This document shows, in pieces, positions 2,513 to 50,658 of a stretch of DNA of 64,000 bases (positions are counted from its first letter, which is position 1; each line of letters opens with the position of its first letter). The stretch lies in sequence record KT321315.1. One strand, given 5' to 3'. This stretch comes from Enterobacter phage phiEap-3. The notes beneath the pieces were generated by a model. It was not told the DNA's origin. It searched no databases and worked only from the letters and a program-made list of their open reading frames with translations. The position numbers and the translations under genes were made by a program.

Positions 2513-3067
2513 TTACCCCTCTTTGCGAATGTACGCAAGTTCTTCATTGGTTACTGGACGGATATACAGACGGCCTTTTGTATATGCCTTGCGCCCACTG
2601 ATCCAAATGTTTTTCATATCCTTAACACCGTTCATCACATCGTTGTAAAACTTCTTATCAGCTTTAGCCTGATAGACTTCACGGCCTTGATAATCTTTCA
2701 TGAACAAACAATAAAGGATCTCATTCTTATCAACTAGATTAGCATCCTTTGTAGTTGTTTTACTTGGTGAAGGTTTAGCACCCAGGCGCAAGGCCATAGC
2801 TTGCCACACTTTACCATGTTCATAACCGCGCCCGACAAGAGCATGAGCGATTTCGTGTAAAAGAGTGTCTAAAATATCCTCGTAGATATCTTCCGCAACA
2901 TGACGACCAGATAGCTCGATCAGTTTTTTGGCATAACTGCAACGGCCCAGAGTTTTTGTAATGCGTCCATTGATCCGGAATGTCCAACCATTACTAATCA
3001 AACCATGTTTTTCCATCATGGTACGCGCCCAGTGGGTTACTTCCATTGCACTACGAGTTTTCAACAT
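2513..3067 (-). CDS. SprT-like zinc metallopeptidase domain protein
   Basis: HEIAH (HExxH) motif with surrounding SprT-like context; ORF-track start 3121 lies inside a terminator hairpin, so the start was moved to the downstream Met with AAGGAG Shine-Dalgarno. Confidence 0.55.
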   Translation of the reverse strand: MLKTRSAMEVTHWARTMMEKHGLISNGWTFRINGRITKTLGRCSYAKKLIELSGRHVAEDIYEDILDTLLHEIAHALVGRGYEHGKVWQAMALRLGAKPSPSKTTTKDANLVDKNEILYCLFMKDYQGREVYQAKADKKFYNDVMNGVKDMKNIWISGRKAYTKGRLYIRPVTNEELAYIRKEG

Positions 3068-3105
3068 TTTAGAATCTCCTTTGCTTGGTACAAAACCAAT
3101 ATAGC

Positions 3106-3131
3106 AAAAAGCCCCCTGCATTGCAAGAGGC
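3106..3131 (-). terminator. rho-independent terminator after gene 52
   Basis: minus-strand reading AGCCTCTTGCAATGCAGGGGGCT plus T5; same element as 55331-55359. Confidence 0.6.
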
Positions 3132-3138
3132 TTTGTAA

Positions 3139-4425
3139 TTATTTCAACTTCTTAGAAAGTTCTTTTAAATCATTGAGATACTCAATTTTAGGGGTTGTTT
3201 CTTCCCAGTATTTCAACTGTTTACGCAATTCTTCGGCTTCGTCTTCCAGCTTTTTGCTTTCGTCCGTGGTTAGATGGTAGATGTTCATAGCCACTAACAT
3301 TTCGGCATGATTCTCGCAACCTATCCACGTAGACACAAATTTAACCGCTTCGCTGCGATTAAGGCCACGCAGAGAATCAGGAGATTCTACCATTTGAGTA
3401 ATAAACGCAACCTTTGCTAGTGCTTTATCTAACGCTTCCTTAGTCTCCTGGATACGCTTATTGATACGCTGTTGATATACATTCATACGAATATCAACGA
3501 AATCCTTTAGAAGCGTTTCAGGGCGTTCATATGAGTATAGTTTGCCCTCAAAGATAACGTTAATGTTTGGGTTTGAGTTTTCAATCAAGCCGAAATCTTT
3601 CAGGATCTTTTCACGGGTTAGCCCATTAGCATACTCTCGCTTGAGCGTTACTTCATACCGAAAATCTTCTTTCGATAGATCCTTGTAGCTAACGATAACG
3701 CCTTTTTCTTCCAGCTTGTCAAGGATTGCGATGTATTTCACACGGTCATATTTCACTGGGATCTCAGTGATCACCAATTTGGTTTTACCTTGCAATTCAT
3801 AGGTGCCATAAATCGTACCGTCTGTGATTTCACCTTTAAAGTAAGGATATTTCAGATCCAGTGTGAAATCTTTATCATTAAGATATGCAATACACCCGTT
3901 AACAACTGATTTAGGATCATGAGGCGGAATGTTTGTTGCATATGCTTTTGCAATCCCGCTAAACCCGTTAACCAGTACCATCGGGATGATCGGGAGATAG
4001 TACGCTGGCGGTACGTGTTCCGGATCTTCATGAACTGGAGTTAAATCACCATCCATATAAATTGCTTTGAATATTGGCGATAGTTTGCACTTGATGTAAC
4101 GAGGTGCGCCAGGTTTCTTAACCAGACGGGAACCAAAGAACCCATCACGATCGAATAACGGAATGTTATTGCACCAGTGCGCCGCCATAAGGGATAACGC
4201 TTCTTCTACAGAGGTTTCCCCGTGGTGATATCCATACATAGCAACACCGCCAGCGATAGAAGCTACTTTCTGAAATCCCGTTCCGCCCTGCATAGCAGAG
4301 TGAATAAAGAAGCGGTGAACGGGTTTGAACCCGTCTACCAGGTGCGGGATCGCACGTGAATAAATCGTGTAAAGGGCAAACGTTAGCCCTTCCACCTGTA
4401 CAACATCTTTAATACTTCTTTCCAT
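3139..4425 (-). CDS. 52: DNA topoisomerase II medium subunit (GyrA-like N-terminal domain)
   Basis: 428 aa; GyrA-type motif DGFKPVHRFFIHSAM; size matches T4 gp52 (442 aa). Confidence 0.85.
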   Translation of the reverse strand: MERSIKDVVQVEGLTFALYTIYSRAIPHLVDGFKPVHRFFIHSAMQGGTGFQKVASIAGGVAMYGYHHGETSVEEALSLMAAHWCNNIPLFDRDGFFGSRLVKKPGAPRYIKCKLSPIFKAIYMDGDLTPVHEDPEHVPPAYYLPIIPMVLVNGFSGIAKAYATNIPPHDPKSVVNGCIAYLNDKDFTLDLKYPYFKGEITDGTIYGTYELQGKTKLVITEIPVKYDRVKYIAILDKLEEKGVIVSYKDLSKEDFRYEVTLKREYANGLTREKILKDFGLIENSNPNINVIFEGKLYSYERPETLLKDFVDIRMNVYQQRINKRIQETKEALDKALAKVAFITQMVESPDSLRGLNRSEAVKFVSTWIGCENHAEMLVAMNIYHLTTDESKKLEDEAEELRKQLKYWEETTPKIEYLNDLKELSKKLK

Positions 4426-6329
4426 TAGTCAACCTTAGAAAATTTGTGTTTTCCATTAACCCAATCTTTACGCGGATCGGATTCGTCACCGAAGCATAGT
4501 TCTAACACTTCTTTGTATTCGTCGTCAAGTACGATGACATCATACTTCAACTGATCACCCAGAACACGGTCGTAATCTTCTTTGCGTAAAGAACCCAGCC
4601 CTTTGATGTATCGTACATCTTTTGCTTTATCGCGGAAAGGTGCAAACTCATCAAGAGAATAGAACCATTTTTCCTCGCGCCCAACTTTAGCGATAACGAT
4701 CGGGGTTCGAATATATCGGATCCGTTTTTCTGCAAACAGAGAAGGCCAACGGCTAAAGAATGCAAGCAACAGGGTTAAAATGTCGCCGCCGTCAACGTCA
4801 GCATCGACCATGATACCGATATTATCATAAGTCATTCCGGAAGTATCACCAGGATGAATATTGAGGATAGCCATTAGCTCAAACAGTTCTTTGTTTTTGA
4901 TAATGTCTGTAAAACTCATACCCCATGTATTCAGAGGCTTACCACGTAGCGGGAAAGCGCCTTGTGTTTCTTCGTTACGGCATTCGATGAACTGACCAAC
5001 AGCGGAATCGCCTTCTGTCAGAAACAGTGTTGTTTCTACCCCTGGAGTATCGATACCGGAAGCCGGAACGTGTTTAGCAATCTTTGCTTTTTTCGCTTTC
5101 TTTTTCGCTTTGGTGATCGCGGCGGCTTCTGCTGCTTGTTTACGAATCAATGCGGATTCAATGATCGGAGTAATGATTTCTGGGGTATCCATAATCATTT
5201 TTGCGATCTTTTTATAGTTCAAATTCGCATGATTGTTAAACTCACCTGCTGTATTTGCCAATCGCTCTTTTGTTTGGCTATCGAATGCAGGTGCATTAAA
5301 GTTATGCAGGAATACCACAAGAGTTAAGCATTCTTTTACACGTGCTTTCGGGATCTCGATACTATGCTTTTTCTTGATCATGGGTTCAAGTTCAGAATAG
5401 ATACCATCGATCATACATTCAACATGAACACCGCCGTTTTTCGTATCCAGACCGTTAACAAAGGATTTCTGTTTAAACCCGTCCTCAGTGCTTGCCAGAA
5501 TGAAGCTGAGACGATTATTTGTCTGGACAATGGTTTTATCCCCATACATGGAAGCGTACAGCGGGAAGCGATTAGAGAGCGTTTCACCGTTATATGTGAA
5601 TTTCACAGACGGGAAAGCAACGGCAAGGGCCATTAAGCGATCCTTAATCACTTCTTTGGTTTCTTCATCGATACCAGTTACACCAAACATAGAGAAGTCT
5701 GGAGTAAACTTAACAGTAGTACCCTGTTCTTTGCTGGGGCTGGTTCGGTAATCGATGTTCTGTGCGCCGTCCGTACAGTTAATGGTTACTTTGCGTTTCC
5801 CGTTTGCAGTCTCGCCAATAAAAATCGAGCTATAGCAGTTTGTCAGGAAAGAACCAACACCATTCATACCCATCGTCACGCGGTTTTTATCATCGAAGTT
5901 AGAACCCGATTTTGCCATAGTCCATGCTGCAACTGGTTTAGGAACTATTTTCCCGTCTGGGGTTTTTACATCATCCTGGGGAATACCGCGCCCGTTATCA
6001 GAGATTTTAACCAGATTATGATCAATGGTTACATCAATCTTATTAGCATGTTTGAATTCAGTTCGGATCGCTTCATCAATCGAGTTATCAAGGATTTCGT
6101 TGATGATTTTAACCAACCCTTCCACGTACTCAACCTTGCGATATTGGCCCATTATGAAACGTTCGTGCGCCTCTTTGTTAACCGATCCGACGTACATATT
6201 TGGACGCAACCGAATATGATCGCGATCGCTCATACAAAATGATTCGTCAACCTTTGCGCCCTTTTTGGCTGGTTGCGGTTTCTGTTCTGGTTCATCATCT
6301 GCCAGAAGAAAATCTAAACTCATATTCAC
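4425..6329 (-). CDS. 39: DNA topoisomerase II large subunit, GyrB-like, gp39 and gp60 fused
   Basis: 634 aa GyrB-like (GHKL ATPase plus Toprim); the single ORF covers what T4 splits into genes 39 and 60. Confidence 0.88.
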   Translation of the reverse strand: MNMSLDFLLADDEPEQKPQPAKKGAKVDESFCMSDRDHIRLRPNMYVGSVNKEAHERFIMGQYRKVEYVEGLVKIINEILDNSIDEAIRTEFKHANKIDVTIDHNLVKISDNGRGIPQDDVKTPDGKIVPKPVAAWTMAKSGSNFDDKNRVTMGMNGVGSFLTNCYSSIFIGETANGKRKVTINCTDGAQNIDYRTSPSKEQGTTVKFTPDFSMFGVTGIDEETKEVIKDRLMALAVAFPSVKFTYNGETLSNRFPLYASMYGDKTIVQTNNRLSFILASTEDGFKQKSFVNGLDTKNGGVHVECMIDGIYSELEPMIKKKHSIEIPKARVKECLTLVVFLHNFNAPAFDSQTKERLANTAGEFNNHANLNYKKIAKMIMDTPEIITPIIESALIRKQAAEAAAITKAKKKAKKAKIAKHVPASGIDTPGVETTLFLTEGDSAVGQFIECRNEETQGAFPLRGKPLNTWGMSFTDIIKNKELFELMAILNIHPGDTSGMTYDNIGIMVDADVDGGDILTLLLAFFSRWPSLFAEKRIRYIRTPIVIAKVGREEKWFYSLDEFAPFRDKAKDVRYIKGLGSLRKEDYDRVLGDQLKYDVIVLDDEYKEVLELCFGDESDPRKDWVNGKHKFSKVD

Positions 6330-16040: not shown

Positions 16041-17045
16041 TTACTCTATTGTGAAAGTGAATAAATCAGATTTGGTTTCGGGTTCAAACTCCATACAAAC
16101 AACTTCGCATAGTGGTTTAACCCCTTTCCAATCCTCCAGGTAATACCCAGTATCTATACCGCATCCAGGATTCATAACAAGGCCAGTTTCATCAAGAAAC
16201 TTTTTGCATTTACTTGATGTGGTGCTGTCATCTTGCCGGAAACAATGTGTTTTCGAATACCGGAAATTTGCAGACATTTGAGGGATTATGAAAGTTCCCT
16301 GACGCGCGATCTGTGATGCACGTTCGATTACTTTATACTCAAATTCCGCCCCTGTATACTTACCCTTAAAATCAGAGGTTTTGATTTTACCAAAAGGCGG
16401 ATTACTGATCGCCATATCAAACACCTGATTAAATTCAGTTGTTAAGGCGTCTCCATGCACCCAAGAGGCTTCTGGTACGATACGCTTACCTAACTCATAG
16501 TATGTGTGATTTAACTCAACACAGACGATTTCACGCGGCGTATTGTACATCATGTAATGAACCATAGCGAAAGATAATCCACCGATACCAGCACACAGGT
16601 CAATAACGCTTCCACCTGTGCAAGCATCGATTGTGAAATCGCGAGCAAGTCCAATAGGGGTAAAGAACGCCCCTAATTCAGAGTTGTTTGTAAACGCGCC
16701 TTCATGAAAGTTTTCGATAATGAACAACTTCTCTTCGTAAGTTAGCGCTTTGTCAGAGTGAACCAGATCCATTATCTGATTGTGCTTCTTGGTTTCCGCT
16801 TTCGTTAACTTTGCCATTGTCCCAGCTATACAATAATGTTGTTTCATTCGGATAGAATTCCCATCCGTCCACGTATCCGGTTTCCCAGTCAGTAGTTTGT
16901 TCAAAACCACAGATCCATTCATACACACCCGGAGGCATTTCGATAGAATCAGGAAGCCCGATATCTTCCGCGCTGCGTCCACATTCAAAGAATGCATCAT
17001 GAATGAATGGTCGAGATAATACCGTAACATAACCTTCATCGTCAA
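16041..17045 (-). CDS. SAM-dependent N6-adenine methyltransferase (motif I then NPPF; N6_Mtase/gamma-like order)
   Basis: VIDLCAGIGGLSFA (motif I) followed about 65 aa later by ISNPPFGK (motif IV); the true start is probably an internal Met near 16770-16816, because the N-terminal extension overlaps ORF 16753-17142. Confidence 0.6.
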   Translation of the reverse strand: MTMKVMLRYYLDHSFMMHSLNVDAARKISGFLILSKCLRVCMNGSVVLNKLLTGKPDTWTDGNSIRMKQHYCIAGTMAKLTKAETKKHNQIMDLVHSDKALTYEEKLFIIENFHEGAFTNNSELGAFFTPIGLARDFTIDACTGGSVIDLCAGIGGLSFAMVHYMMYNTPREIVCVELNHTYYELGKRIVPEASWVHGDALTTEFNQVFDMAISNPPFGKIKTSDFKGKYTGAEFEYKVIERASQIARQGTFIIPQMSANFRYSKTHCFRQDDSTTSSKCKKFLDETGLVMNPGCGIDTGYYLEDWKGVKPLCEVVCMEFEPETKSDLFTFTIE

Positions 17046-17142
17046 CAGCTACGATCCAGCGCGAACTGTGAGGACTATCGAACTTCGGTTCTTTTTCGTC
17101 CATATCCGCTTTTATTTCAGCCTTACAAAAATCAATATTCAT
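16753..17142 (-). CDS. hypothetical protein
   Basis: 129 aa protein-like ORF in a different frame that overlaps the annotated MTase N-terminus. Confidence 0.4.
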   Translation of the reverse strand: MNIDFCKAEIKADMDEKEPKFDSPHSSRWIVAVDDEGYVTVLSRPFIHDAFFECGRSAEDIGLPDSIEMPPGVYEWICGFEQTTDWETGYVDGWEFYPNETTLLYSWDNGKVNESGNQEAQSDNGSGSL

Positions 17143-17426
17143 TTCAAACCCTCTTTAACACCCTCTTTCATGGCTTTCCAGGTAGAACCTGCTTCACCAT
17201 TCAGGGCGGCGAATACAAATAGTAAGATAGCAAGGACAAGATTCACGCCAGCAATCACCATGATTTTGCTATACACGAAAATGTAAGGCATTGCCACCAC
17301 CCACCAACTAAAAGAATTACCAGTTACGATGTTGAGTGCTGCAAGTAAGAAAGTGATAACGAATGCGATTTTCATAATGTCCTCCTTTGTTATGATTAAG
17401 GTATCATCTTTTGCGAAAGAATGCAA
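17139..17426 (-). CDS. multi-TM small membrane protein
   Basis: 95 aa; hydrophobic throughout. Confidence 0.5.
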   Translation of the reverse strand: MHSFAKDDTLIITKEDIMKIAFVITFLLAALNIVTGNSFSWWVVAMPYIFVYSKIMVIAGVNLVLAILLFVFAALNGEAGSTWKAMKEGVKEGLK

Positions 17427-17444
17427 TACCTACAGATACAAAAA

Positions 17445-17460
17445 AGCCCCTTTCGGGGCT
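17445..17460. terminator. bidirectional terminator
   Basis: AAAAAGCCCCTTTCGGGGCTTAATTTTTT (A-run, hairpin, T-run). Confidence 0.6.
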
Positions 17461-17467
17461 TAATTTT

Positions 17468-17722
17468 TTATGCGTTATTGATGAGATACCGAAGAACGTT
17501 TTTCGCTTGTTCCTCATTACAACCAACTTTGAAACCAGGTTCGATAGGGAGGAAGTTCCAGAGGAAATCAACACTTCCTTCAACGTCATCTTTGCCTTTT
17601 TCCAGCATCGCTAACAGTAAACCTTTGTTTTTGATGCTGTTTACGATTGCGTCAAAATAACCATCGCTGAAATCAACATTCGGGTTCAGCATTTCGTTGT
17701 AAGGGTTGTTGAATACGTTCAT
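17468..17722 (-). CDS. hypothetical protein
   Basis: 84 aa; consensus-like promoter upstream at 17735-17790 and a bidirectional terminator downstream. Confidence 0.5.
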   Translation of the reverse strand: MNVFNNPYNEMLNPNVDFSDGYFDAIVNSIKNKGLLLAMLEKGKDDVEGSVDFLWNFLPIEPGFKVGCNEEQAKNVLRYLINNA

Positions 17723-17734
17723 TTTGAATCTCCT

Positions 17735-17790
17735 TTGTTTAACTCAGTATCTTGTCTACGTGAGTTATATTACCACAATGGAGATTCAGG
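17735..17790 (-). promoter_or_regulatory. sigma70-like promoter
   Basis: minus-strand TTGACC-N16-TGTGGTAATAT (extended -10) upstream of gene 17468-17722. Confidence 0.45.
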
Positions 17791-17801
17791 TCAATACCTT
17801 T

Positions 17802-18071
17802 TTACGATTTTTTGAAAAATTTTTCGTATTTGGCTTTTACCCAGCGATACATATCTTCGGCCTTGTCACTGGAAATCAGTGAGAACAGAAGATAGATCGC
17901 AACACCCACCAACACAACGCCTACAACAATGTAGACGGGTAATAGAACTGGGAAGAGAACCCAGAACCATGACATTTGCGAGAAGCCGAACACTTTAGCG
18001 GCTGCAAAAATCAGAGTTAGTCCAGTCAGCAGTTTGATAGCTGGAATCGGAATCGTTATAGTCTTAGTCAT
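17802..18071 (-). CDS. small membrane protein
   Basis: 89 aa with two or three TM helices. Confidence 0.5.
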   Translation of the reverse strand: MTKTITIPIPAIKLLTGLTLIFAAAKVFGFSQMSWFWVLFPVLLPVYIVVGVVLVGVAIYLLFSLISSDKAEDMYRWVKAKYEKFFKKS

Positions 18072-18114
18072 TTCATTACCTTACATTCTTTATGGGGCTA
18101 TTCGCCCCAGTCAA

Positions 18115-19551
18115 TTAAAATTGAATGTCAGATTTTGCAATCTGTGCCATTTTATCACGTCTGGTAGATTCAGCCTGTTTAATCATCGGGCCTTGTGTCT
18201 GTTCTACTGTTCTAGGCATAGTGTTGCCGTGGTAGTCAGATTTAAACCCGTATTCGCTGTTGTCGGTATCCATCCAGCGCTGATTACCCTTGCGAACTTC
18301 CAGCTTGAACTTGTTGAAAGTGTTCTTATCACCATAACGGGATTTGATTTGCTTGAACAGTTGCATACCCTGATCAGCTAACTCTTCCGTCTCAATCACA
18401 GCTAACATAAAATCAGCCGTAGCAGGTAAACCAGCGGATTCCGCAACATCACCCATACTCACATCCGAACTATCCCATGCAGAACGACCAACCTGTGCGC
18501 CTGTCCACATTACGGTATTAGTTTCAACAGCAAGACCGCGTAGTTCTTCGGCAATTGCTTTAACCAGAATATAGGTATTCTCAGCACCTTTAACACGGGT
18601 TGAAGTACAGATCCCCAGGTAATCGACAATGATCACATCCGGAACAAACTGTTTCTTCAATTTAAGCTCTTTCACAAGCGCTCTAAAGTGGTTTGCACCT
18701 GCACCCGATGTAGGGTACTGCTTGACCACCAAACGCCCAACCTTACCCGCTTTAAGGCGCTCCATTTTGTTCTTATAGTCTGCGTATGTAATGTTCCCTT
18801 CGTCGATGTCATCCATAGTCACATCAAGAAGGTTAGCATCGATACGCTTAGAGCAAACATGCTCTGCCATTTCCATAGAAATGTAAAGAACGTTTTTACC
18901 CTGTTGCAGATAATCAGCCGCAAGAGAACATAAGCCCAGTGATTTACCAACGTTAACACCAGCCATGATGATATTCAGTGTACCACGTTCCGCGCCGCCT
19001 TTGGTGATTGCGTTCAGGATCGGGATACCAAACGGAATTTTCATCGCCTTCGATTGGTAAAGCATCCACCGTTTTTCATAATCTTCGAAATAGTCATGAC
19101 CTACTGAACTATCGAATGAAATTGCTAATGCTTCCTCCATGATTTCAGGGATAGCCCCAACACCAGGAAGTTTCTTGTTCTGTTCTGCCAGTGGTTTTTC
19201 TGCGTTCGCCTGGATTTCGATTGCACGAGAAAGAGCACGATACATTGCTTTATCTTTGCAATATGTTTCCGTTTCCTTCATTAGCCAATCTAAATCTTCT
19301 GGCGCATTTTTCAGCGACTGAATCGCCTTTTTCGTGTCTTCGTAGACTACATCACTTAGATTTCGTTTGTCAAGCGCAACCTCTAAAGCAGTTTTTGACG
19401 GAATGCCGTTGAATTCCTGTACATGTTTATCAATGAGGTCAAACAAAACTTGTGCATTGCCTTCGAAATATTCCTTTTTCAGATGGGGCCATGCTTGGAC
19501 AAAATATGTCCCGTTATAAATCAGGTTAGAAAATATTGTATCAACGATCAT
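18115..19551 (-). CDS. 41: replicative DnaB-like helicase
   Basis: 478 aa; extended alignment to recalled T4 gp41 (GAETGTLNV.MAGVNVGKSLGLCSLAADYLQ). Confidence 0.92.
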   Translation of the reverse strand: MIVDTIFSNLIYNGTYFVQAWPHLKKEYFEGNAQVLFDLIDKHVQEFNGIPSKTALEVALDKRNLSDVVYEDTKKAIQSLKNAPEDLDWLMKETETYCKDKAMYRALSRAIEIQANAEKPLAEQNKKLPGVGAIPEIMEEALAISFDSSVGHDYFEDYEKRWMLYQSKAMKIPFGIPILNAITKGGAERGTLNIIMAGVNVGKSLGLCSLAADYLQQGKNVLYISMEMAEHVCSKRIDANLLDVTMDDIDEGNITYADYKNKMERLKAGKVGRLVVKQYPTSGAGANHFRALVKELKLKKQFVPDVIIVDYLGICTSTRVKGAENTYILVKAIAEELRGLAVETNTVMWTGAQVGRSAWDSSDVSMGDVAESAGLPATADFMLAVIETEELADQGMQLFKQIKSRYGDKNTFNKFKLEVRKGNQRWMDTDNSEYGFKSDYHGNTMPRTVEQTQGPMIKQAESTRRDKMAQIAKSDIQF

Positions 19552-19917: not shown

Positions 19918-21075
19918 TTATAAAATTTCGTTGTTTTCTTCGATATCATCAAATGATTCTGGGATATCGTCATCATCCAGATCAGGATCTGGGATGCTAT
20001 CAGTGCTGTATAAATCTTCCAGCGCGGAACCATCACTGATTTCACGATCTGGGATCTTATACTTTTCTTCGATAGCTTTCAAGAATGGTTGATGAGTAAA
20101 CAGAGGACGCCAGAATTCAACGCTATTTGTTTCTGACTCACGCCATTTCTTTTCTTCAATTTCGAGTTCGCCAGTCTCAGTATTCAGGAAAGCGCGGTTG
20201 CGCCAGCCTTTGGTTACGGTCTGTACAAAGTTCATTTCCATTGCCAGATCCAAAAGGCCAGAATACATACTAATACCGCCTTCATAGGTAACATGCAGCG
20301 GGAATTTTGATTTCTCTTTCACGAATCGAGATTTTTCGATATTCATGATGAAATCATAACCCACCACCTCAGTACCTTCTTTCACCTGTTGTTTACCCAG
20401 GATGATCGCAGTATCAGCGGAATACATTAAACCAGTACCACCGGAAATAACTTTCTTGCTGTACATTTCTTGCGTGTCATAGGTATGACAGATACAAACC
20501 ATCGGGATATCCAGGTCAGCCAGATAAGGCGTAACCATACGGAACATACCTTTTAATGCTTTTGCTCGCGTCATATCCTGTTTATCGTTATCAGACAGCG
20601 CGTCAGCAAGTTCTTTTTTACTTGCCGTGTTGCCTACTGAGTCAACGAATACAATCACCTTATCACCGCGTTCAAGCGCGTTAAGCTGGCTTACAACGTC
20701 ATTACGCAACTGCTCGACCGTCGTGATACGAGTATACACAACACGATCCGGATCAACACCCATTGATTTCAGATAGGATTTAGTAACACCTTTTTCTGAA
20801 TCGTAGAACAGGCACACAGCATCTTCATACGTTTTGAGATAAGCCGCTACGGTCAGCAAACCTAAGTTTGATTTGAAGTGTTTGGACGGGCCAGCGAAAA
20901 GGGTAAGACCAGAAGTTAGGCCACCGTTAAACGCACCGGACAACGCCAGATTCAGAATCGGCACACGGGTTCGCGTGATGGTAATATTGTTGAATACGTC
21001 GCTTTCAGAAAGTACAGATGCAGTTTGGCTATTCGAGTTTTTGATCAGTTTTTTTAGTAGTGCTTTGTTTGACAT
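19918..21075 (-). CDS. uvsX: UvsX RecA-like recombinase
   Basis: 385 aa; aligns throughout with recalled T4 UvsX (LFAGPSKHFKSN, MTRAKALKGMFRMVTPY). Confidence 0.92.
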   Translation of the reverse strand: MSNKALLKKLIKNSNSQTASVLSESDVFNNITITRTRVPILNLALSGAFNGGLTSGLTLFAGPSKHFKSNLGLLTVAAYLKTYEDAVCLFYDSEKGVTKSYLKSMGVDPDRVVYTRITTVEQLRNDVVSQLNALERGDKVIVFVDSVGNTASKKELADALSDNDKQDMTRAKALKGMFRMVTPYLADLDIPMVCICHTYDTQEMYSKKVISGGTGLMYSADTAIILGKQQVKEGTEVVGYDFIMNIEKSRFVKEKSKFPLHVTYEGGISMYSGLLDLAMEMNFVQTVTKGWRNRAFLNTETGELEIEEKKWRESETNSVEFWRPLFTHQPFLKAIEEKYKIPDREISDGSALEDLYSTDSIPDPDLDDDDIPESFDDIEENNEIL

Positions 21076-21128
21076 TTAATTTTTCCGATTTATTCATTGT
21101 CATTCTATATATCTCACTAGTTAATGAA

Positions 21129-21144
21129 AGGGGCCGAAGCCCCT
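21129..21144 (-). other. GC hairpin AGGGGCCGAAGCCCCT between genes 43 and uvsX
   Basis: hairpin family member. Confidence 0.45.
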
Positions 21145-21149
21145 AGAGT

Positions 21150-23849
21150 TTACCAGTCACCGAACAGGTCGTTTAAACTGGCACGTTTTTCATAATCAAT
21201 TTTACATACTTCTGTGATGTTAGTCAATGGACTAATAACATGTTTTTCAAACATACCCGGATAATCTACCCATGCGAGAATATCACTTTCGATCTCTGCT
21301 GGTAGTCTATTTCCGGATTGCCACGCGATGCAATCAGCTTGCCACGGGTTTTTATCCCTTAGTGGTAGAACCATTACCTTTTCACCTTCCATGATTGGTG
21401 TAACACCATCAATACCAGCAGTGAAACGGTTAAAGAACAGCACCCCTTTAATATGGTTTGGTGTTCCCTTTATTGGATAGCCAGCACCATCGCGATATTT
21501 CGAAATGTTGTTGGCAGATGATACACCAGCAATTTCCCTGTAGTCAAGCTCCTTATATTCTTCTTCGAACTTTTTATAATGTTCGTGCAAAGATAATTCA
21601 CCTTCTTGCAGGATACGGCGGATCGCTTCTTTCAGGAATACTTTCACAGAGGTCGGAGTACTCGATCGCTGTGTTTCCATACCCATGATTTTCAATTTCG
21701 GTTTTTCATAGCGGGTTCCTTCGGAGTCCCACACGTTAGCCGCATATCGTTTTTTAGCAGTCCAGAAACTTCCCAATCCTTCGGAACCCAGCGGAGGCCC
21801 AGAAATGATTTCACGATCCATAAACATCAGGTGTTCCACGTTGTTCATGTATTCGCAAAGTTCACGATACCCTTTATCGATCATCGGTTCCATTCTTTCT
21901 TTAGCAAAGCGATCCAGGAAGTCAACCCAATGGTTATTATCCTTAAATTTAGCCTCACCGCCAACTTTTGCAATCACGTTATCCATGCAAACATAAATGG
22001 AGTCAGTATCACAGTATCGAACATATGCATGATCCGTAGTACCGCACAGGTCATTAAGGTATTCGTTTACCTTACGTTCAATCCACTGGATAGCCAACTG
22101 CCCGAACATGGTGATCGCGCTGGCGTTTCGTAGATCGAAGTATCGGAAGTGTTCATTACCCAACGCACCATAAAGGGAGTTGATAGAAATCTTACGGTTA
22201 AGCTGTGCTGTGTTCGCTTGTGCGATCTTCTTCTCACACACGCGCTTAACTGCTTTAAGCATTTGTTTCGTAAGAGTTTTCAGAACTGCTTTCGATTCAT
22301 CACTGAAATCTGTATAGAAATCAAAGTCAGGATCAACCATTTGGTTATGCGCGTCTGTTAAATGTTCGAGTTCATGCTTGATGAGTTCAAGATTTCGCTC
22401 ACCCGCCATCATTCGTTTTTTCCACATCTTACGCTGATCAAATACTTTCTTGATCTCTACTGGGATCACGCCTTTGATATCACGGCGGAACATCCACCCG
22501 TTAGGAGAACAGCTAAATTCATCGCTAGGGCGCGGCGCTGTCTTATTAATATACTCTTCAAGAGCACGTACCGCAAAACTTCCCATAATCGTTTCAGGGC
22601 TTATATTCACCTGTCGGATGATGGAAGGGTACAGGCTTGTTAAGTCGAACGATACCATGTATTTGTAAGGCCCAGGAACAGGATCCTTCACAAATGCCCC
22701 AGGGTAAGGGGTTTTAGTATGGCGTCGGTTTTCCGGAATAACAACCTTATCTTCACGCAGAGAGTTATAAATGATCGCGTCCCACGTTTTCAGCGGAGAC
22801 ATAACCCCAGGGAAGTTAATTTTTGCATAGTACGCTACAGACAGAACCAGTTCAATAAAGTTTCGTTTACCATCGATATCAAGTACACGGATAACGTCAA
22901 CAATGTTGTACGTGATGTACAGTTGGTGATCTCGCTGGCGTAGTTCAGACAGGGAACCTTCATACTCAACTTTATTTTTACCAGTTTCGTATTCCGCGAT
23001 CGCGTCCAGGCGGTAAGATGGTTGCGGGGTAAAGCTGAATTTCTTATACAGCGCCATACCATCCATTTGAGCAACGCCGGAAATATCATATCCTAACTGT
23101 TCGTTGCCGTAAGCGTCAGTAGTGGTTCTGGCGGTTACTTTACCAAACGGGCTAAAATGCCTTACCACGTTTTGACCGAAAATGTTCAGGTATCGCGTGA
23201 TGATATATGCAATATCGAATTTGTCAGAGTTCCATCCGGTTACAATAACAGGGGTTCGCTCTTTCCAATCTTTGATATACGCAGACAATAACGACTTCTC
23301 GGTCTGGAAAGACCGATAAACAATTTTGTTTAAATCTTCTTCGCTAATGTCTTTGCGATCAACGTTTGCAGCGCACCATTCAGCAAGGCCACCCTCAACC
23401 AGATCGTATACATAGAATTTATCTTCGATGCTATCGTAATGGGTAATCGCATCGATTGGATATTTCGCTTCACGCGGATCCGGAAATTCCGGAGCGGTCA
23501 CCTCGATATCGAGAGAAGCAATACGAATGTGTTCGCGGTTGTATTCAATTTCATTCCGGTACATGTCAGAAATGTATGCCAGGCGGTAATCATCCATACC
23601 TAGCGCTTCCATTCCAACATCGCGCATACGCTGCATCCAGTTTTTAGCTTCTTTGATGCTGTCAAACTGTTTTTTGAGGCAAGGCTTGCCGTAAATGTCT
23701 TTGTATGGGGTTTCTACGCCATTCATAGCGTGTTGATACATTACTGGCGCATATTTCGTCTTACGTACCTGTTCGGTGCCGTTAGAGTCAACGAAGCGCT
23801 CATAAATGGTATCTCCCATTTGTTCAACTGATAGGTAAAATTCATTCAT
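21150..23849 (-). CDS. 43: family-B DNA polymerase
   Basis: 899 aa; exo and pol motifs (YCDTDS, SLYPSII, KxxxNSLYG); size equals T4 gp43. Confidence 0.95.
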   Translation of the reverse strand: MNEFYLSVEQMGDTIYERFVDSNGTEQVRKTKYAPVMYQHAMNGVETPYKDIYGKPCLKKQFDSIKEAKNWMQRMRDVGMEALGMDDYRLAYISDMYRNEIEYNREHIRIASLDIEVTAPEFPDPREAKYPIDAITHYDSIEDKFYVYDLVEGGLAEWCAANVDRKDISEEDLNKIVYRSFQTEKSLLSAYIKDWKERTPVIVTGWNSDKFDIAYIITRYLNIFGQNVVRHFSPFGKVTARTTTDAYGNEQLGYDISGVAQMDGMALYKKFSFTPQPSYRLDAIAEYETGKNKVEYEGSLSELRQRDHQLYITYNIVDVIRVLDIDGKRNFIELVLSVAYYAKINFPGVMSPLKTWDAIIYNSLREDKVVIPENRRHTKTPYPGAFVKDPVPGPYKYMVSFDLTSLYPSIIRQVNISPETIMGSFAVRALEEYINKTAPRPSDEFSCSPNGWMFRRDIKGVIPVEIKKVFDQRKMWKKRMMAGERNLELIKHELEHLTDAHNQMVDPDFDFYTDFSDESKAVLKTLTKQMLKAVKRVCEKKIAQANTAQLNRKISINSLYGALGNEHFRYFDLRNASAITMFGQLAIQWIERKVNEYLNDLCGTTDHAYVRYCDTDSIYVCMDNVIAKVGGEAKFKDNNHWVDFLDRFAKERMEPMIDKGYRELCEYMNNVEHLMFMDREIISGPPLGSEGLGSFWTAKKRYAANVWDSEGTRYEKPKLKIMGMETQRSSTPTSVKVFLKEAIRRILQEGELSLHEHYKKFEEEYKELDYREIAGVSSANNISKYRDGAGYPIKGTPNHIKGVLFFNRFTAGIDGVTPIMEGEKVMVLPLRDKNPWQADCIAWQSGNRLPAEIESDILAWVDYPGMFEKHVISPLTNITEVCKIDYEKRASLNDLFGDW

Positions 23850-39381: not shown

Positions 39382-41634
39382 ATGAATGACATTAAAGTAG
39401 TAGTAAAATCCTCTGGTGTACGCCAGCCGTTTGACAAAGAAAAAATATACAAAGTGCTCAAGTGGGCCTGTGATGGTCATAATATCGATGTTCGTGCATT
39501 CCTTGAAAATGTATTAGAACTGATCCGCGATGGTATGACTACCAAACAAATTCAACGTATCGCTATCAAGTATGCAGCAGATCATATTTCTGTTAAAGAA
39601 CCGGATTGGCAATACGTAGCATCAAATCTTGAAATGTTTGCATTGCGTAAAGACGTTTACGGTCAGTTCGATCCTATCCCGTTCTACGATCACATCGTTA
39701 AAATGGTTGAAGCGGGGAAATACGATAAAGAGATCCTTGAAAAATACAGCAAGCAAGATATTCAAGTTTTCGAACGTGCAATTGATCATGATAAAGATTT
39801 TGAATTTTCGTATGCTGGTTCCCAACAGTTAATCGGGAAATATCTGGTTCAGGATCGCGATACTGGCGAAATCTTTGAAACCCCTCAGTATGCGTTTATG
39901 CTTATTGCAATGTGTCTGCATCAGGAAGAAACTGGATTAGCACAGGTTACGCATATTGTTGATTTTTATAACGCAATTTCCGATCGCAAACTGTCTCTAC
40001 CAACTCCAATTATGGCGGGTGTACGTACTCCTACGCGCCAGTTCTCCAGTTGTGTAGTAATTGAATCGGGTGATTCTCTTGGTTCTCTTAACGCTGTAAC
40101 CTCTGCGATCGTGAAGTATATTTCACAACGTGCTGGTATTGGGGTTAACGCGGGACATATTCGCGCAATGGGTTCTAAAATCCGTGGTGGTGAAGCTGTT
40201 CATACTGGTGTGATTCCTTTCTGGAAACATATCCAAACCGCTGTTAAATCCTGTTCACAGGGTGGCGTTCGTGGTGGTGCTGCAACACTGTATTATCCTT
40301 TCTGGCATCTGGAAGTTGAAAACCTTCTGGTGTTGAAGAACAACAAAGGCGTAGAAGAAAACCGCGTTCGTCATCTTGATTACGGTGTACAGCTTAACCA
40401 GTTGATGTATAAACGCTTAATGAATCGTGATTACATTACGCTGTTTAGTCCGGATGTTGCTAACGATCGTCTGTATGATCTGTTCTATGAAGCCGATCAG
40501 ACTGCATTTGAAGAACTGTATGAAAGCCTGGAAAAAGACCCAACTGTTCGTAAGAAACGTATCAAAGCGGTTGACCTGTTCCAACTTTTAGCACAGGAAC
40601 GCGCACAGACAGGACGCAAATACATTTTCAACACTCATCACGTCAACCAACAGGGTAGTTTTACGGTTCCTGTCCGTATGTCTAACCTCTGCTGTGAGAT
40701 TGCGATCCCAACGTCGCCGCTGGATGACGATGATAAAATGGCTGGTGAAATTGGATTGTGTACGCTAATGGCTATCGTTCTGGATAACGCTGATATCAGT
40801 GAATTCCCGAAACTCACGCGTATTGCGGTACGTGCGCTTGATAACCTGCTGGATTACCAGAACTACCCTGTAAAAGCCGCTCTGAAAGCTAAACAGCGTC
40901 GTTCTCTGGGTGTTGGTATCACCAACTATGCATCATGGTTAGCAAGCAACTATTGCGACTACTCAGAAGCGTATACAGACAAAGTTCATGAATTAATGGA
41001 AGCGTTTCAGTTTAACCTTCTCGTTGCTTCTATGGAACTGGCGAAAGAACGTGGTGCGTGTGGATTGTACAACGATACCAAATACGCTCGCGGGTTACTG
41101 CCTATCGATTGGTATTGCAAAACTGTTGATGAACTGGTAGCACCTGTTTATAATTGCGATTGGGAATGGTTACGTAGTCAGATTAAGAAATACGGCTTGC
41201 GCAACTCTACTCTTTCTGCTTTAATGCCTTGTGAAAGTAGTTCACAGGTTAGTAACTCTACCAACGGGATCGAACCTCCGCGCGGTTTAGTGAGTATCAA
41301 ATCTTCGAAAGAAGGACACTATAACCAGGTTGTGCCTAACCAGAATAACCAGATTGATTTCTATGATCTGCTCTGGGATATGGCTAAACGCGGTAACAAA
41401 GGGTATCTGTCTCATGTAGCAGTTATGCAGAAGTTTGTCGATCAGTCTATTTCTGCAAACACCAACTATGACCCGGCAAACTATGAAGACGGGAAAGTTA
41501 AAACAGAAGACATCATTGATGATCTGCTGTATGCTAACTACTACGGTGTTAAAACTCTGTACTATCATAATACGCGTGATGGTGCTGGTGATGAAGAAGA
41601 AGCCGCAGAAGATTGCGCGGGTTGTAAGATTTGA
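39382..41634 (+). CDS. nrdA: ribonucleotide reductase class Ia alpha subunit
   Basis: 750 aa; catalytic NLCCEI and C-terminal CxxC tail. Confidence 0.92.
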   Translation: MNDIKVVVKSSGVRQPFDKEKIYKVLKWACDGHNIDVRAFLENVLELIRDGMTTKQIQRIAIKYAADHISVKEPDWQYVASNLEMFALRKDVYGQFDPIPFYDHIVKMVEAGKYDKEILEKYSKQDIQVFERAIDHDKDFEFSYAGSQQLIGKYLVQDRDTGEIFETPQYAFMLIAMCLHQEETGLAQVTHIVDFYNAISDRKLSLPTPIMAGVRTPTRQFSSCVVIESGDSLGSLNAVTSAIVKYISQRAGIGVNAGHIRAMGSKIRGGEAVHTGVIPFWKHIQTAVKSCSQGGVRGGAATLYYPFWHLEVENLLVLKNNKGVEENRVRHLDYGVQLNQLMYKRLMNRDYITLFSPDVANDRLYDLFYEADQTAFEELYESLEKDPTVRKKRIKAVDLFQLLAQERAQTGRKYIFNTHHVNQQGSFTVPVRMSNLCCEIAIPTSPLDDDDKMAGEIGLCTLMAIVLDNADISEFPKLTRIAVRALDNLLDYQNYPVKAALKAKQRRSLGVGITNYASWLASNYCDYSEAYTDKVHELMEAFQFNLLVASMELAKERGACGLYNDTKYARGLLPIDWYCKTVDELVAPVYNCDWEWLRSQIKKYGLRNSTLSALMPCESSSQVSNSTNGIEPPRGLVSIKSSKEGHYNQVVPNQNNQIDFYDLLWDMAKRGNKGYLSHVAVMQKFVDQSISANTNYDPANYEDGKVKTEDIIDDLLYANYYGVKTLYYHNTRDGAGDEEEAAEDCAGCKI

Positions 41635-41639
41635 TTAAT

Positions 41640-41658
41640 GCCCCTTCGGGGGCTTTTT
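41640..41658 (+). terminator. rho-independent terminator after nrdA
   Basis: GCCCCTTCGGGGGC followed by TTTTT. Confidence 0.65.
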
Positions 41659-41670
41659 AAAGGTAAAGAC

Positions 41671-42846
41671 ATGTTAACAGTAATGAATACAAACCCAGAT
41701 CATAACCACTTAGATCAACCTATGTTTTTTGGTGAAGATACTGGTGTTGCACGTTATGAATCGCAGAAACACAAAGTTTTCGAAAGCCTGACGCAAAAAC
41801 AGCTTTCTTTCTTCTGGCGTCCGGAAGAAGTCGATCTGTCTACTGACCGTATGCAGTATGCAAAACTTCCTGAACATGAAAAAATCATTTTCGATTCTAA
41901 CCTACAGTATCAAACCCTGTTAGATACCATTCAGGGACGTGGGCCTAACCTCGCATTTTTGCCAATTGCATCCGATGTGAGTATGGAAACCTGGATCGAA
42001 ACGTGGGCGTTTAGTGAAACCATCCACAGCCGTAGTTACACGCATATTCAACGTAACTTGCACATTGATCCTTCTGTACAGTTCGACCAAATCCTTCGCA
42101 ATGAAGCGATTATGAAACGTTCCGCATCAATGACACGGTATTATGATACTCTGATTGATGAATGTCATAAGCTGAAAACCATCATGATGCTACAGGAACA
42201 GGTTAGCGGCTATAAACCAAATGATCCGGCTGTCGTGTATTATAACGAGCAATACACTAAACAGGCCACTAAGTGCAAAGAAGCGCTGTACCTTTGTATG
42301 CACGCTGTGAACGCTCTGGAAGCGATCCGTTTCTATGTGTCGTTTAGTTTCACCTTTAACTTTGCTGAACAAGGCAAGATGGAAGGCAACGCGAAAATTA
42401 TGCGCCTGATTGCGCGTGATGAAGCATTGCATCAGAAAGGTACTCAGAGTAAAATCCGTTTGTGGCAAATGGGTAAAGATGACCCAGAAATGGTTGAAAT
42501 CTCCCGTAGGCTGAAAAAAGAAGCAACGGCGATTTTCCTGGAAGTATATGAACAGGAAAAAGAATGGGCTGAACATTTATTCTCTGTTGGTGATGTAGAA
42601 GGTGTATCGTTGAAAAGCACTATCGCTTATATTGAACACCTTACAGATCAGCGTATGCGAGCGGTAGGGCTTGATTCACCATTCACCCCGATCCCTAACC
42701 CGTATCCGTGGATGAATAAATGGCTCAAAAGTGATAACGTACAGGTTGCCCCGCAAGAGGTTGAAGTAAGTTCTTACCTCGTCGGAAACCTGAATACTGA
42801 AATCAGCGATGAAGCGTATGCAAAATGGGCCAGCAAATACGCGTGA
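41671..42846 (+). CDS. nrdB: ribonucleotide reductase class Ia beta subunit, intronless
   Basis: di-iron and tyrosyl-radical motifs; ORF-track start 41638 lies inside a terminator hairpin, so start moved to MLTVMN. Confidence 0.9.
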   Translation: MLTVMNTNPDHNHLDQPMFFGEDTGVARYESQKHKVFESLTQKQLSFFWRPEEVDLSTDRMQYAKLPEHEKIIFDSNLQYQTLLDTIQGRGPNLAFLPIASDVSMETWIETWAFSETIHSRSYTHIQRNLHIDPSVQFDQILRNEAIMKRSASMTRYYDTLIDECHKLKTIMMLQEQVSGYKPNDPAVVYYNEQYTKQATKCKEALYLCMHAVNALEAIRFYVSFSFTFNFAEQGKMEGNAKIMRLIARDEALHQKGTQSKIRLWQMGKDDPEMVEISRRLKKEATAIFLEVYEQEKEWAEHLFSVGDVEGVSLKSTIAYIEHLTDQRMRAVGLDSPFTPIPNPYPWMNKWLKSDNVQVAPQEVEVSSYLVGNLNTEISDEAYAKWASKYA

Positions 42847-48302: not shown

Positions 48303-48379
48303 GGCCCCTTAGCTCAATAGGTAGAGCTAATCACTCATAATGGTTAGGTTCCCGGTTCAAATCACGGGAGGGGCCACCA
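48303..48379 (+). tRNA. tRNA-Met/fMet (or Ile2) with CAU anticodon
   Basis: 7-bp acceptor GGCCCCT/AGGGGCC; D-arm GCTC-AATAGGTA-GAGC; anticodon arm AATCA-CTCATAA-TGGTT; T-loop GTTCAAATC; discriminator A and encoded CCA. Confidence 0.75.
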
Positions 48380-49330: not shown

Positions 49331-49356
49331 GGCTATCTTCGGATAGCCTTATTTTT
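49331..49356 (+). terminator. rho-independent terminator
   Basis: GGCTATCTTCGGATAGCC followed by TTATTTTT. Confidence 0.65.
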
Positions 49357-49359
49357 GGG

Positions 49360-49932
49360 GTGTCTATGCGCTTTTTAAAGTATGCAAGTTGGATCGTACT
49401 CGTCCCTCTTGACATTATTACTGGAGTATTAGCAATTCTGTTTGCCCCGTTTGTTGTACCGTTCTACAACGAGAAAACAGGGCATCTTCCTAAAGGCTTC
49501 CGGTGGATGGAAACCTTCGATAACCCTATTGATGGTGATGGTGGACATATCCGCCGTTGGGCGTCCATACGCTATCATCTGGGGGATTTTGGGGTATACA
49601 TGCAGCGTGTTGGCTGGTTGTGGAGAAACAAGGCTTATAACTTCGCATATCACGTTTTAGGACGTGAAGCGACAAGCAAATTCAACTGGAAAGGCAACCC
49701 AAAAACAGAAGGTGGGCCGAACCCTGTAAATCATGGGTATCTGCTCATGTGGAACGAATCAGCATGGGGTTTGTACGTTTACAAACCGTGGATACAGATC
49801 CACAAAGTGCAATTCTGTTTGCGCGTTTATGCTGGATGGAAGCTGAAACAAGAAGTTAGCGACCCAGTTAACCTGGATCGTGCAATGCTGGCGTTTCATT
49901 TCAACCCGTTCAGGTATTATGTAATCAAGTAA
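49360..49932 (+). CDS. membrane-anchored hypothetical protein, Trp-rich
   Basis: 190 aa; N-terminal [25 protein letters not shown]. Confidence 0.5.
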
Positions 49933-49942
49933 AGGTAATACA

Positions 49943-50305
49943 ATGAAAGCATTTCAAATTTTAGAAGGTTTGCATACTGGTACAATCTATCTGGAAGAAG
50001 GTAACGACGTTCGGATCGTAGTATCAAAAACATTAACTATGGATTCTGTGATCGGCAAAGCTCGCGTTACTCCGTTTGCAAAGCGTGAGATCGAGATCGA
50101 ATATCAGCCAACTGTTAAAGTGGAAGGTGGACAACATTTAAACGTTAACGTGTTGCGCCGAGAAACTCTCCTGGATGCGGTTGAACATCCTGAAAAATAT
50201 CCGCAATTGACGATCCGTGTATCTGGTTATGCAGTGCGTTTTAACTCACTGACCCCTGAACAGCAACGCGACGTTATTGCTCGTACCTTTACAGAGAGTC
50301 TATAA
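49943..50305 (+). CDS. grcA: autonomous glycyl-radical cofactor (GrcA/YfiD-like)
   Basis: C-terminal 60 aa [59 protein letters not shown] carries the RVSGY glycyl-radical motif and, from memory, is nearly identical to E. coli GrcA; the N-terminal half is divergent. Confidence 0.8.
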
Positions 50306-50574
50306 TGGCAATTGCTGATATCAAGGGTTATAAACCCCATACTGATAAAAAAGTAGAAACAGTAAACCGTATCAAAGATGCTGAAAATGCATTAGGTGCA
50401 ATCCTGGAAGATATCGAACAGCGACTATCAAATTCAGATATTGATTCTCTGATAGAGGAAGAATTAGATGAGGTGCTTGAACGTATCCATCAAGTTCAAC
50501 TGGCGAAAGATCGACTGAAAGAAGCCTCTATGTGGGCGTGTCGTGCGGTGTTCCAGCCCGACGAAAAATATTAA
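50305..50574 (+). CDS. hypothetical acidic protein
   Basis: 89 aa ORF followed by a terminator. Confidence 0.45.
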   Translation: MAIADIKGYKPHTDKKVETVNRIKDAENALGAILEDIEQRLSNSDIDSLIEEELDEVLERIHQVQLAKDRLKEASMWACRAVFQPDEKY

Positions 50575-50579
50575 AAATC

Positions 50580-50610
50580 AAGCCGTTGCCGAAAGGTAGC
50601 GGCTTTTTTC
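50580..50610 (+). terminator. rho-independent terminator
   Basis: AAGCCG...CGGCTT followed by TTTTTCGTTTTT. Confidence 0.55.
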
Positions 50611-50629: not shown

Positions 50630-50658
50630 TTGACTCCCTTCTCACATTCCCTTATAGT
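50630..50658 (+). promoter_or_regulatory. near-consensus sigma70 promoter TTGACT-N17-TATAGT
   Basis: -35 TTGACT at 50630-50635; 17-bp spacer; -10 TATAGT at 50653-50658; directly downstream of the terminator at 50580-50610. Confidence 0.6.

Follow-up and report, generated by a model that had tools for sequence, protein, structure and literature searches.

A GrcA-type glycyl-radical protein encoded by Enterobacter phage phiEap-3: a putative Slopekvirus ortholog of T4 Vs.6/Y06I that appears long resident rather than recently captured

When a lytic phage encodes a protein whose C-terminal half is nearly identical to that of its bacterial hosts, it must be asked what the protein does for the phage and whether the gene was taken from a host in recent times. 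Both questions are raised by positions 49943-50305 of a 64,000-nucleotide stretch of Enterobacter phage phiEap-3 (record KT321315.1; this whole stretch is referred to as the window), where a reading made from the sequence only had recognized a host-like gene for GrcA, an autonomous glycyl-radical cofactor also known as YfiD, and had proposed a recent capture of the 3' half of the host gene and its fusion to a new N-terminus. On the comparisons presented here, the gene product is evidently a 'spare part' of the GrcA/YfiD type and the counterpart, by orthology, of T4 Vs.6/Y06I in Slopekvirus. The gene is no recent chimera; it is homologous to grcA over its full length, has long been resident and is subject to very strong purifying selection. 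The gene and its parts are as follows.

49943..50305, + strand: grcA-like gene, ortholog of T4 vs.6 / Y06I; intact ATG-to-TAA open reading frame (ORF) of 120 codons plus stop
49932..49936, + strand: Shine-Dalgarno-like AAGGT, about 7 nucleotides 5' of the grcA ATG and overlapping the stop of the upstream ORF; read from the sequence
49943..50122, + strand: N-terminal half (N-half), codons 1-60, diverged homolog of the GrcA-specific N-terminal region
50123..50302, + strand: C-terminal half (C-half), codons 61-120, glycyl-radical domain of the pyruvate formate-lyase (PFL) type
50225..50227, + strand: GGT, the codon of Gly95, which is predicted to bear the radical and is placed by its position in RVSGY and by alignments to GrcA and PflB

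The host-like gene proved to be a real ORF, and its assignment is supported by several models. Pfam Gly_radical (PF01228) is found at residues 60-101 of the phage protein (E 4e-18; score 66 bits, cut-off 22), and the best PDB match is E. coli GrcA/YfiD (6owr; phmmer E 3e-40, phage residues 19-120 aligning with residues 25-127 of the bacterial protein), followed by the pyruvate formate-lyase PflB (E 1e-27). Within NCBIfam, TIGR04365 (family IPR011140) scores highest, with E 5e-44 over phage residues 18-120; this model, titled 'autonomous glycyl radical cofactor GrcA', was built for naming bacterial proteins. PHROG 1209 matches the protein end to end (residues 1-120, E 4e-59). The RVSGY glycyl-radical motif that had been noticed within the C-terminal 60 or so residues occupies residues 92-96, with G95 as the presumed radical glycine; its counterparts are G102 in E. 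coli GrcA and G734 in PflB, whose roles have been described together with the radical route from G102 to C419 (PMC12338860). The product is a stand-alone small protein, as the 120-residue ORF has its own start, Shine-Dalgarno-like site and stop, and the neighbouring ORFs (DUF7338 and Acb2-like) are unrelated. The stated near-identity to enterobacterial GrcA is likewise correct: over its last 60 residues, the phage protein agrees with K. pneumoniae GrcA at 60/60 positions, with E. coli GrcA at 58/60 and with residues 700-759 of E. coli PflB at 50/60, which is far beyond chance and no weak motif-level match.

The N-terminal half had been regarded as unrelated to GrcA, a view that does not survive comparison with the bacterial proteins. 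With N-halves delimited by cutting proteins directly before the PFL-homologous EGGQH motif, the phage N-half alone (residues 1-58) matches 92 of 92 distinct bacterial GrcA N-halves (best E 1.6e-5, phmmer), and an hhalign comparison of the T4-like and bacterial N-half profiles gives P 1.8e-9 and a probability of 96%, at 24% identity over 45 columns. The N-halves of T5-like phages bridge both groups, with values of 5e-18 when compared with T4-like N-halves and 4e-16 when compared with bacterial ones. When bacterial genomes are searched with tblastn, residues 1-120 or 10-120 align with grcA of many Enterobacterales, Pasteurellaceae and Vibrio, and the columns conserved between phage and bacterial proteins in a full-length alignment of 34 sequences are Q5, I6, R24, K29, D34, R48, E49 and P56. 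Against the Pseudotevenvirus allele the N-half has a pN/pS (proportions of nonsynonymous and synonymous differences) of 0.08/0.49. The 11 residues just 5' of EGGQH follow GrcA, aligning with REVPVEVKPEV, and not PflB. Because the N-half is homologous and these residues are GrcA-like, the gene descends from a full-length grcA, neither from the 3' end of pflB nor from a fusion; what had been taken for a new N-terminus is the GrcA-specific N-half in diverged form.

Homology, motif, conservation, selection pattern and the absence of recent transfer are established in this analysis, and the proposed function builds on them by orthology. We consider it probable, at roughly 85%, that the phage GrcA keeps host PFL active during infection when oxygen intrudes. 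The role in PFL upkeep under microaerobic conditions, as put forward in the sequence-only reading, agrees with biochemistry on the T4 ortholog: in the part of PMC8683613 that cites Wagner et al. 2001, Y06I and E. coli YfiD are both radicalised by the PFL-activating enzyme (PFL-AE) and rebuild oxygen-cleaved PFL, and the two are given there as the sole 'spare part' proteins validated to date. By orthology from T4 Y06I and E. coli YfiD, installation of the radical by PFL-AE and rescue of cleaved PFL by the phage protein would be expected in Klebsiella as well.

In the proposed mechanism, grcA would be expressed in a short unit with the DUF7338 protein and an Acb2-like protein directed against the cyclic-oligonucleotide-based antiphage signalling system (CBASS). 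The host PFL-activating enzyme PflA, a radical S-adenosylmethionine enzyme, would remove a hydrogen from Gly95, which lies in the RVSGY loop, and the C-terminal 60 residues would dock into a host PflB whose own radical domain oxygen had cleaved at G734. The radical could then move to C419 of PflB, so that acetyl-CoA and formate are again made from pyruvate, while the diverged N-half most likely supplies binding to the cleaved PFL. A lytic phage that shuts off host expression would in this way bring its own spare part, and fermentative energy and acetyl-CoA supply would survive exposure to oxygen in gut-like microaerobic niches. The N-half of YfiD is reported to be disordered in solution by nuclear magnetic resonance, yet it is required for binding cleaved PFL (PMC8683613).

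Three observations weigh against this assignment and function. The TIGR04365 score of 149.6 bits lies under the curated equivalog cut-off of 170, which we attribute to the diverged N-half. The N-half is just ~24% identical to that of E. coli GrcA over the 45 aligned columns, and its binding properties may differ. Lastly, AlphaFold2 predicts a confidently folded N-terminal domain, at odds with the disorder reported for the N-half of YfiD. The model was built from the 34-sequence alignment for the Slopekvirus protein only and has a mean pLDDT (predicted local distance difference test) of 76; residues 1-50 (49943-50092) are predicted to fold into a beta domain of five strands (pLDDT 90-93), whereas confidence is low in the linker, residues 57-69, and moderate in the C-half. 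The predicted fold may correspond to a protein that is bound or that folds conditionally. Foldseek returned YfiD (6owr) and PFL for the C-half, and for the N-half only non-significant KOW/SH3-like matches (E > 0.1).

Four rival explanations, which concern the target of the protein, its effect, its link to ribonucleotide reductase (RNR) and its origin, find little or no support. The one that survives best holds that another PFL-type enzyme, such as the 2-ketobutyrate formate-lyase TdcE, is repaired instead of or besides PflB, an option compatible with the preferred explanation. It is suggested by the median of 2-3 places per E. coli genome that resemble the grcA 3' half, and by the remark that further glycyl-radical enzymes might be served by proteins like GrcA (PMC8683613). 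Nothing specific speaks against TdcE; however, PFL is the sole demonstrated target of the family (PMC8683613), and we regard this alternative as improbable.

Even less probable, to the point of being only a slight chance, is a decoy or inhibitor that titrates host PflA or occupies PFL unproductively and thereby redirects pyruvate flux. Partner binding could indeed have changed in an N-half that is diverged, shorter than the bacterial one and devoid of the NSFWLLD and ARC motifs; nevertheless, the whole radical domain, with G95 and all residues invariant in bacteria, has been kept at a pN of 0, which exceeds what a decoy would need, and the T4 protein restores the activity of PFL in vitro (PMC8683613).

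The sequence-only reading had also suggested that the protein might support an anaerobic RNR encoded elsewhere in the genome. The window itself holds the two genes of a class Ia enzyme, both located by Pfam scan.

39382-41634: nrdA (class Ia RNR)
41638-42846: nrdB (class Ia RNR)

No nrdD was found by Pfam scans of the 20 largest ORFs of the 64-kb window, which returned class Ia nrdA and nrdB only. The existence of the anaerobic enzyme was borne out by a 98.6%-identical relative, vB_KpnM_05F (LR746310.1), which carries nrdD (16044-18167) and nrdG (20722-21213) ~100 kb from grcA, in a part of the genome that lies outside the window; since this relative encodes both, the phage is likely equipped for anaerobic growth. 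The second part of the suggestion, that GrcA supports this enzyme, did not hold. It could draw on the presence of nrdD and nrdG in the genus Slopekvirus and on the Yersinia jumbo phage fHe-Yen9-03, in which a grcA homolog (595-957) lies two genes downstream of nrdD; but BLASTP against the Slopekvirus NrdD gave no meaningful alignment of residues 61-120 (the best segment, E 0.049, falls in the unrelated N-half), the radical domain is 83% identical to the C-terminus of PflB with GrcA and PFL as best family models, and nrdD is distant from grcA. As the radical domain has no similarity to NrdD, its partner should be PFL, and a spare radical domain for NrdD, or any other support of it, is very improbable. 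Carriage of both a spare part for PFL and an anaerobic RNR, together with the activase NrdG, accords with a coherent picture in which T4-like phages of enterobacteria are fitted out for gut niches where oxygen fluctuates.

The question of origin is decided at the level of DNA. The C-terminal 60 residues are nearly invariant in bacterial GrcA across Enterobacterales, Pasteurellaceae and Vibrio, and protein identity to the host is therefore uninformative on the recency of the gene; more generally, identity to a host protein is no evidence of recent transfer where the domain is nearly invariant. Capture was tested against the grcA genes of K. pneumoniae, Klebsiella sp. and E. coli and 80 other bacterial grcA loci, the K. 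pneumoniae reference coming from chromosome CP125156.1, which is labelled a plasmid in its record. The C-half shares 144 of 180 nucleotides (80%) with K. pneumoniae grcA, and the 36 differences are all synonymous and evenly spread. Alignment to E. coli grcA is restricted to nucleotides 178-363 of the phage gene, at 83-84% identity, and the closest among 82 bacterial C-halves has 151/180 nucleotides in common (84%). Synonymous sites of the C-half are saturated against all 20 bacterial grcA genes compared by the Nei-Gojobori method (19 from Enterobacterales and Pasteurellaceae and one from Vibrio), with pS values of 0.58-0.87; against Klebsiella, pN is 0.000 and pS 0.77. The GC content at third codon positions (GC3) is 0.35 in both halves, against 0.41 +/- 0.05 for the large ORFs of the window. 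DNA identity, pS/pN, GC3 per half and a codon-by-codon display thus revealed no compositional break or conversion tract in the phage allele.

The breakpoint and the difference in GC3 that a recent capture should have left are consequently absent, and the window allele is fully ameliorated, at 80-84% DNA identity to any bacterial grcA compared. That a captured host 3' half was recently fused to an unrelated phage N-terminus, as might be argued from a C-half identical to the host at 60/60 positions beside an N-half of weak similarity, from the replaced 3' halves of other phages and from a divergent C-half in one Slopekvirus allele (both taken up below), is thereby rendered extremely unlikely, as is further indicated by the homology of the N-half to that of bacterial GrcA. 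A short-patch conversion at codons 77-87, as a source of L77 and E81, was also considered and rejected: the longest run identical to Klebsiella sp. spans 6 codons (20 nucleotides), for which our own estimate of the chance, with 35 of 60 codons differing, is ~0.2.

Some irregularities were met in the public records of bacterial grcA. The 5.37-Mb K. pneumoniae chromosome CP125156.1 is filed as a plasmid, the grcA of K. aerogenes NCTC10006 (LR134122.1) is frameshifted, and the assembly 'Vagococcus sp. WN89Y' carries a grcA of the Enterobacteriaceae type, which is probably due to contamination or mislabelling.

Recent replacement of the 3' half by host DNA has left clear traces in other phages. 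In T4 (NC_000866, 5558-5920, - strand), nucleotides 179-363 of the gene are 98.4% identical to the common E. coli grcA allele, which is present in all 5,426 genomes, and the breakpoint in similarity falls sharply at the EGGQH codons. The T4 C-half also shares 173/180 bases with another E. coli allele, RB69 (5001-5363) has 171/180, and in the Klebsiella Jiaodavirus KP185 (3001-3363) 129 of the first 132 bases of the C-half equal K. pneumoniae grcA. In these three phages the N-half has a GC3 of 0.18-0.23 and the C-half one of 0.42-0.58 (a rise from 0.18 to 0.42 in T4). Such a pattern suggests that host DNA has replaced this half in phages repeatedly. The alleles of Karamvirus, Bragavirus, Eneladusvirus, T5 and Priunavirus are ameliorated like that of the window. 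Exchange is also evident within Slopekvirus: the allele of phage 150040 (OP045497.1, 2501-2863) has 21 differences from the window allele in the 180 nucleotides of the C-half and 6 in the 183 of the N-half, against 2.6% across the 5-kb flanks (Fisher P 1e-9), and this mosaic allele carries E77 and K81, the E. coli type. No sampled bacterium or phage exceeds 84% identity to the divergent C-half of phages 150040 and Xman as a possible donor.

The 3' half of grcA hence looks like a recombination hot spot across phages, of which the window allele is not a recent product. One may go further and suppose that the gene evolves as two modules, a lineage-specific N-half and a 3' half that is repeatedly overwritten by host grcA or swapped between phages, with the window allele as an old, ameliorated end state in which L77 and E81 were kept by selection for fit to host PFL and PflA. 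We hold this account to be tentative and rather doubtful; if true, grcA would serve as a compact natural record of the hosts that a phage has had and would exemplify host tracking at the protein level. Strict host tracking of residues 77 and 81 is weakened by the E/K pair found in Pseudotevenvirus phages of Enterobacter and Klebsiella and in Slopekvirus 150040, and the match of L77/E81 to Klebsiella could equally be an ancestral state or chance. In the literature searched, which included a T4-genomics review, no paper describing host-derived 3' halves of phage grcA was found. That phage lineages differ, some having a host-like 3' half and others an ameliorated one, is only a mildly novel by-product, modestly useful for phage evolution.

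A separate case is found in Providencia phage PR1 (KY363465.1, 322-813), in which the annotated GrcA homolog of 163 amino acids has a long hydrophobic N-terminal extension unlike the GrcA N-half, its alignment being confined to the residues that match 51-120 of the window protein. This may be a genuine replacement of the N-terminus or a mis-called start codon.

The gene stands in a compact neighbourhood, with hairpins and promoter located by consensus scan only.

49331..49348, + strand: terminator-like hairpin 5' of the DUF7338-grcA-acb2 unit
49360-49932, + strand: DUF7338 ORF of 190 amino acids, GTG start as listed (DUF7338 E 3e-65; PHROG 2143), directly upstream of grcA
50305-50574, + strand: Acb2/Tad1-like ORF (Pfam Acb2/Tad1 hairpin domain, E 4e-17), directly downstream of grcA
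50580..50605, + strand: strong terminator-like hairpin after the acb2-like ORF, an 11-bp stem followed by a T-run
50630-50658, + strand: sigma-70-like promoter TTGACT-17-TATAGT, past the second hairpin
48303-48379, + strand: tRNA-Met (CAT), ~1.6 kb upstream of grcA, in a position kept in Slopekvirus and Pseudotevenvirus relatives

The DUF7338 ORF appears to head a three-gene unit with grcA and the acb2-like ORF; neither DUF7338 nor PHROG 2143 has an assigned function. The TAA of grcA overlaps the ATG of the acb2-like ORF (TAATG), and the latter, which encodes a homolog of the T4 anti-CBASS sponge vs.4, is apparently cotranscribed with grcA. The gene order in T4 and RB69 is vs.6 - vs.5 - vs.4, and the grcA-acb2 arrangement is also seen in Jiaodavirus, Pseudotevenvirus and Karamvirus.

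Phage GrcA is already known, both as the T4 Vs.6/Y06I family and as the exact Slopekvirus protein named in public databases; it has been on record from the T4 genome onward, and its in vitro function was demonstrated in 2001. Around grcA, 2.5 kb of sequence match over 100 Klebsiella phages that belong to Slopekvirus, a genus of Straboviridae, at 97.6-98.8% identity, which assigns the window to a Klebsiella phage of this genus; several of the matching records carry the annotation 'autonomous glycyl radical cofactor GrcA'. An exact-sequence look-up placed the protein on 375 contigs, under the UniRef name 'Autonomous glycyl radical cofactor, Slopekvirus'. Homologs were found by tblastn in 1,586 phage records, including T4, T2, RB69, T5-like phages and a Yersinia jumbo phage; 104 of these are at least 99% identical, and disruption of the ORF in related phages, as might be feared of a spurious gene, is not seen in the 1,528 with at least 80% coverage, where the gene is intact.

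In comparing the phage protein to known systems, the closest likeness is to T4 Vs.6/Y06I, which also has 120 amino acids and aligns without gaps at about 76% identity (34/60 in the N-half and 57/60 in the C-half); across T4-type phages and RB69 vs.6, identity is 75-77% over 120 amino acids of equal length (76.7% to T4-type phages). Both phages belong to Straboviridae and have an Acb2/vs.4 homolog shortly downstream, although the window phage has no vs.5 between its grcA and acb2-like genes. They differ further in that the 3' half of the T4 gene is nearly E. coli DNA whereas the window allele is 80-84% identical to any bacterial grcA, and in residues 77/81, which are L/E (Klebsiella type) in the window protein and, in T4, the E/K pair of the E. 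coli type. Bacterial GrcA/YfiD (E. coli P68066, PDB 6owr, and the K. pneumoniae protein) is similarly a stand-alone protein of about 14 kDa; however, it has 127 amino acids in comparison to 120, and the phage N-half is without the bacterial MITGIQIT...NSFWLLD and ARC motifs. Bacterial grcA adjoins ung and srmB, whereas the phage copy is found in an early-gene-like cluster of a lytic phage. The C-terminus of PflB (residues ~696-759; PDB 2pfl and 1h16) shares 50/60 residues with the phage protein, including RVSGY, and the predicted fold matches PFL, but the phage radical domain is free-standing and accompanied by a GrcA-specific N-half. GrcA of T5-like phages (Demerecviridae) is likewise a full-length homolog with an ameliorated 3' half and equal GC3 in both halves; it belongs to a different phage family, is ~52% identical overall and has 11 substitutions in its last 60 residues.

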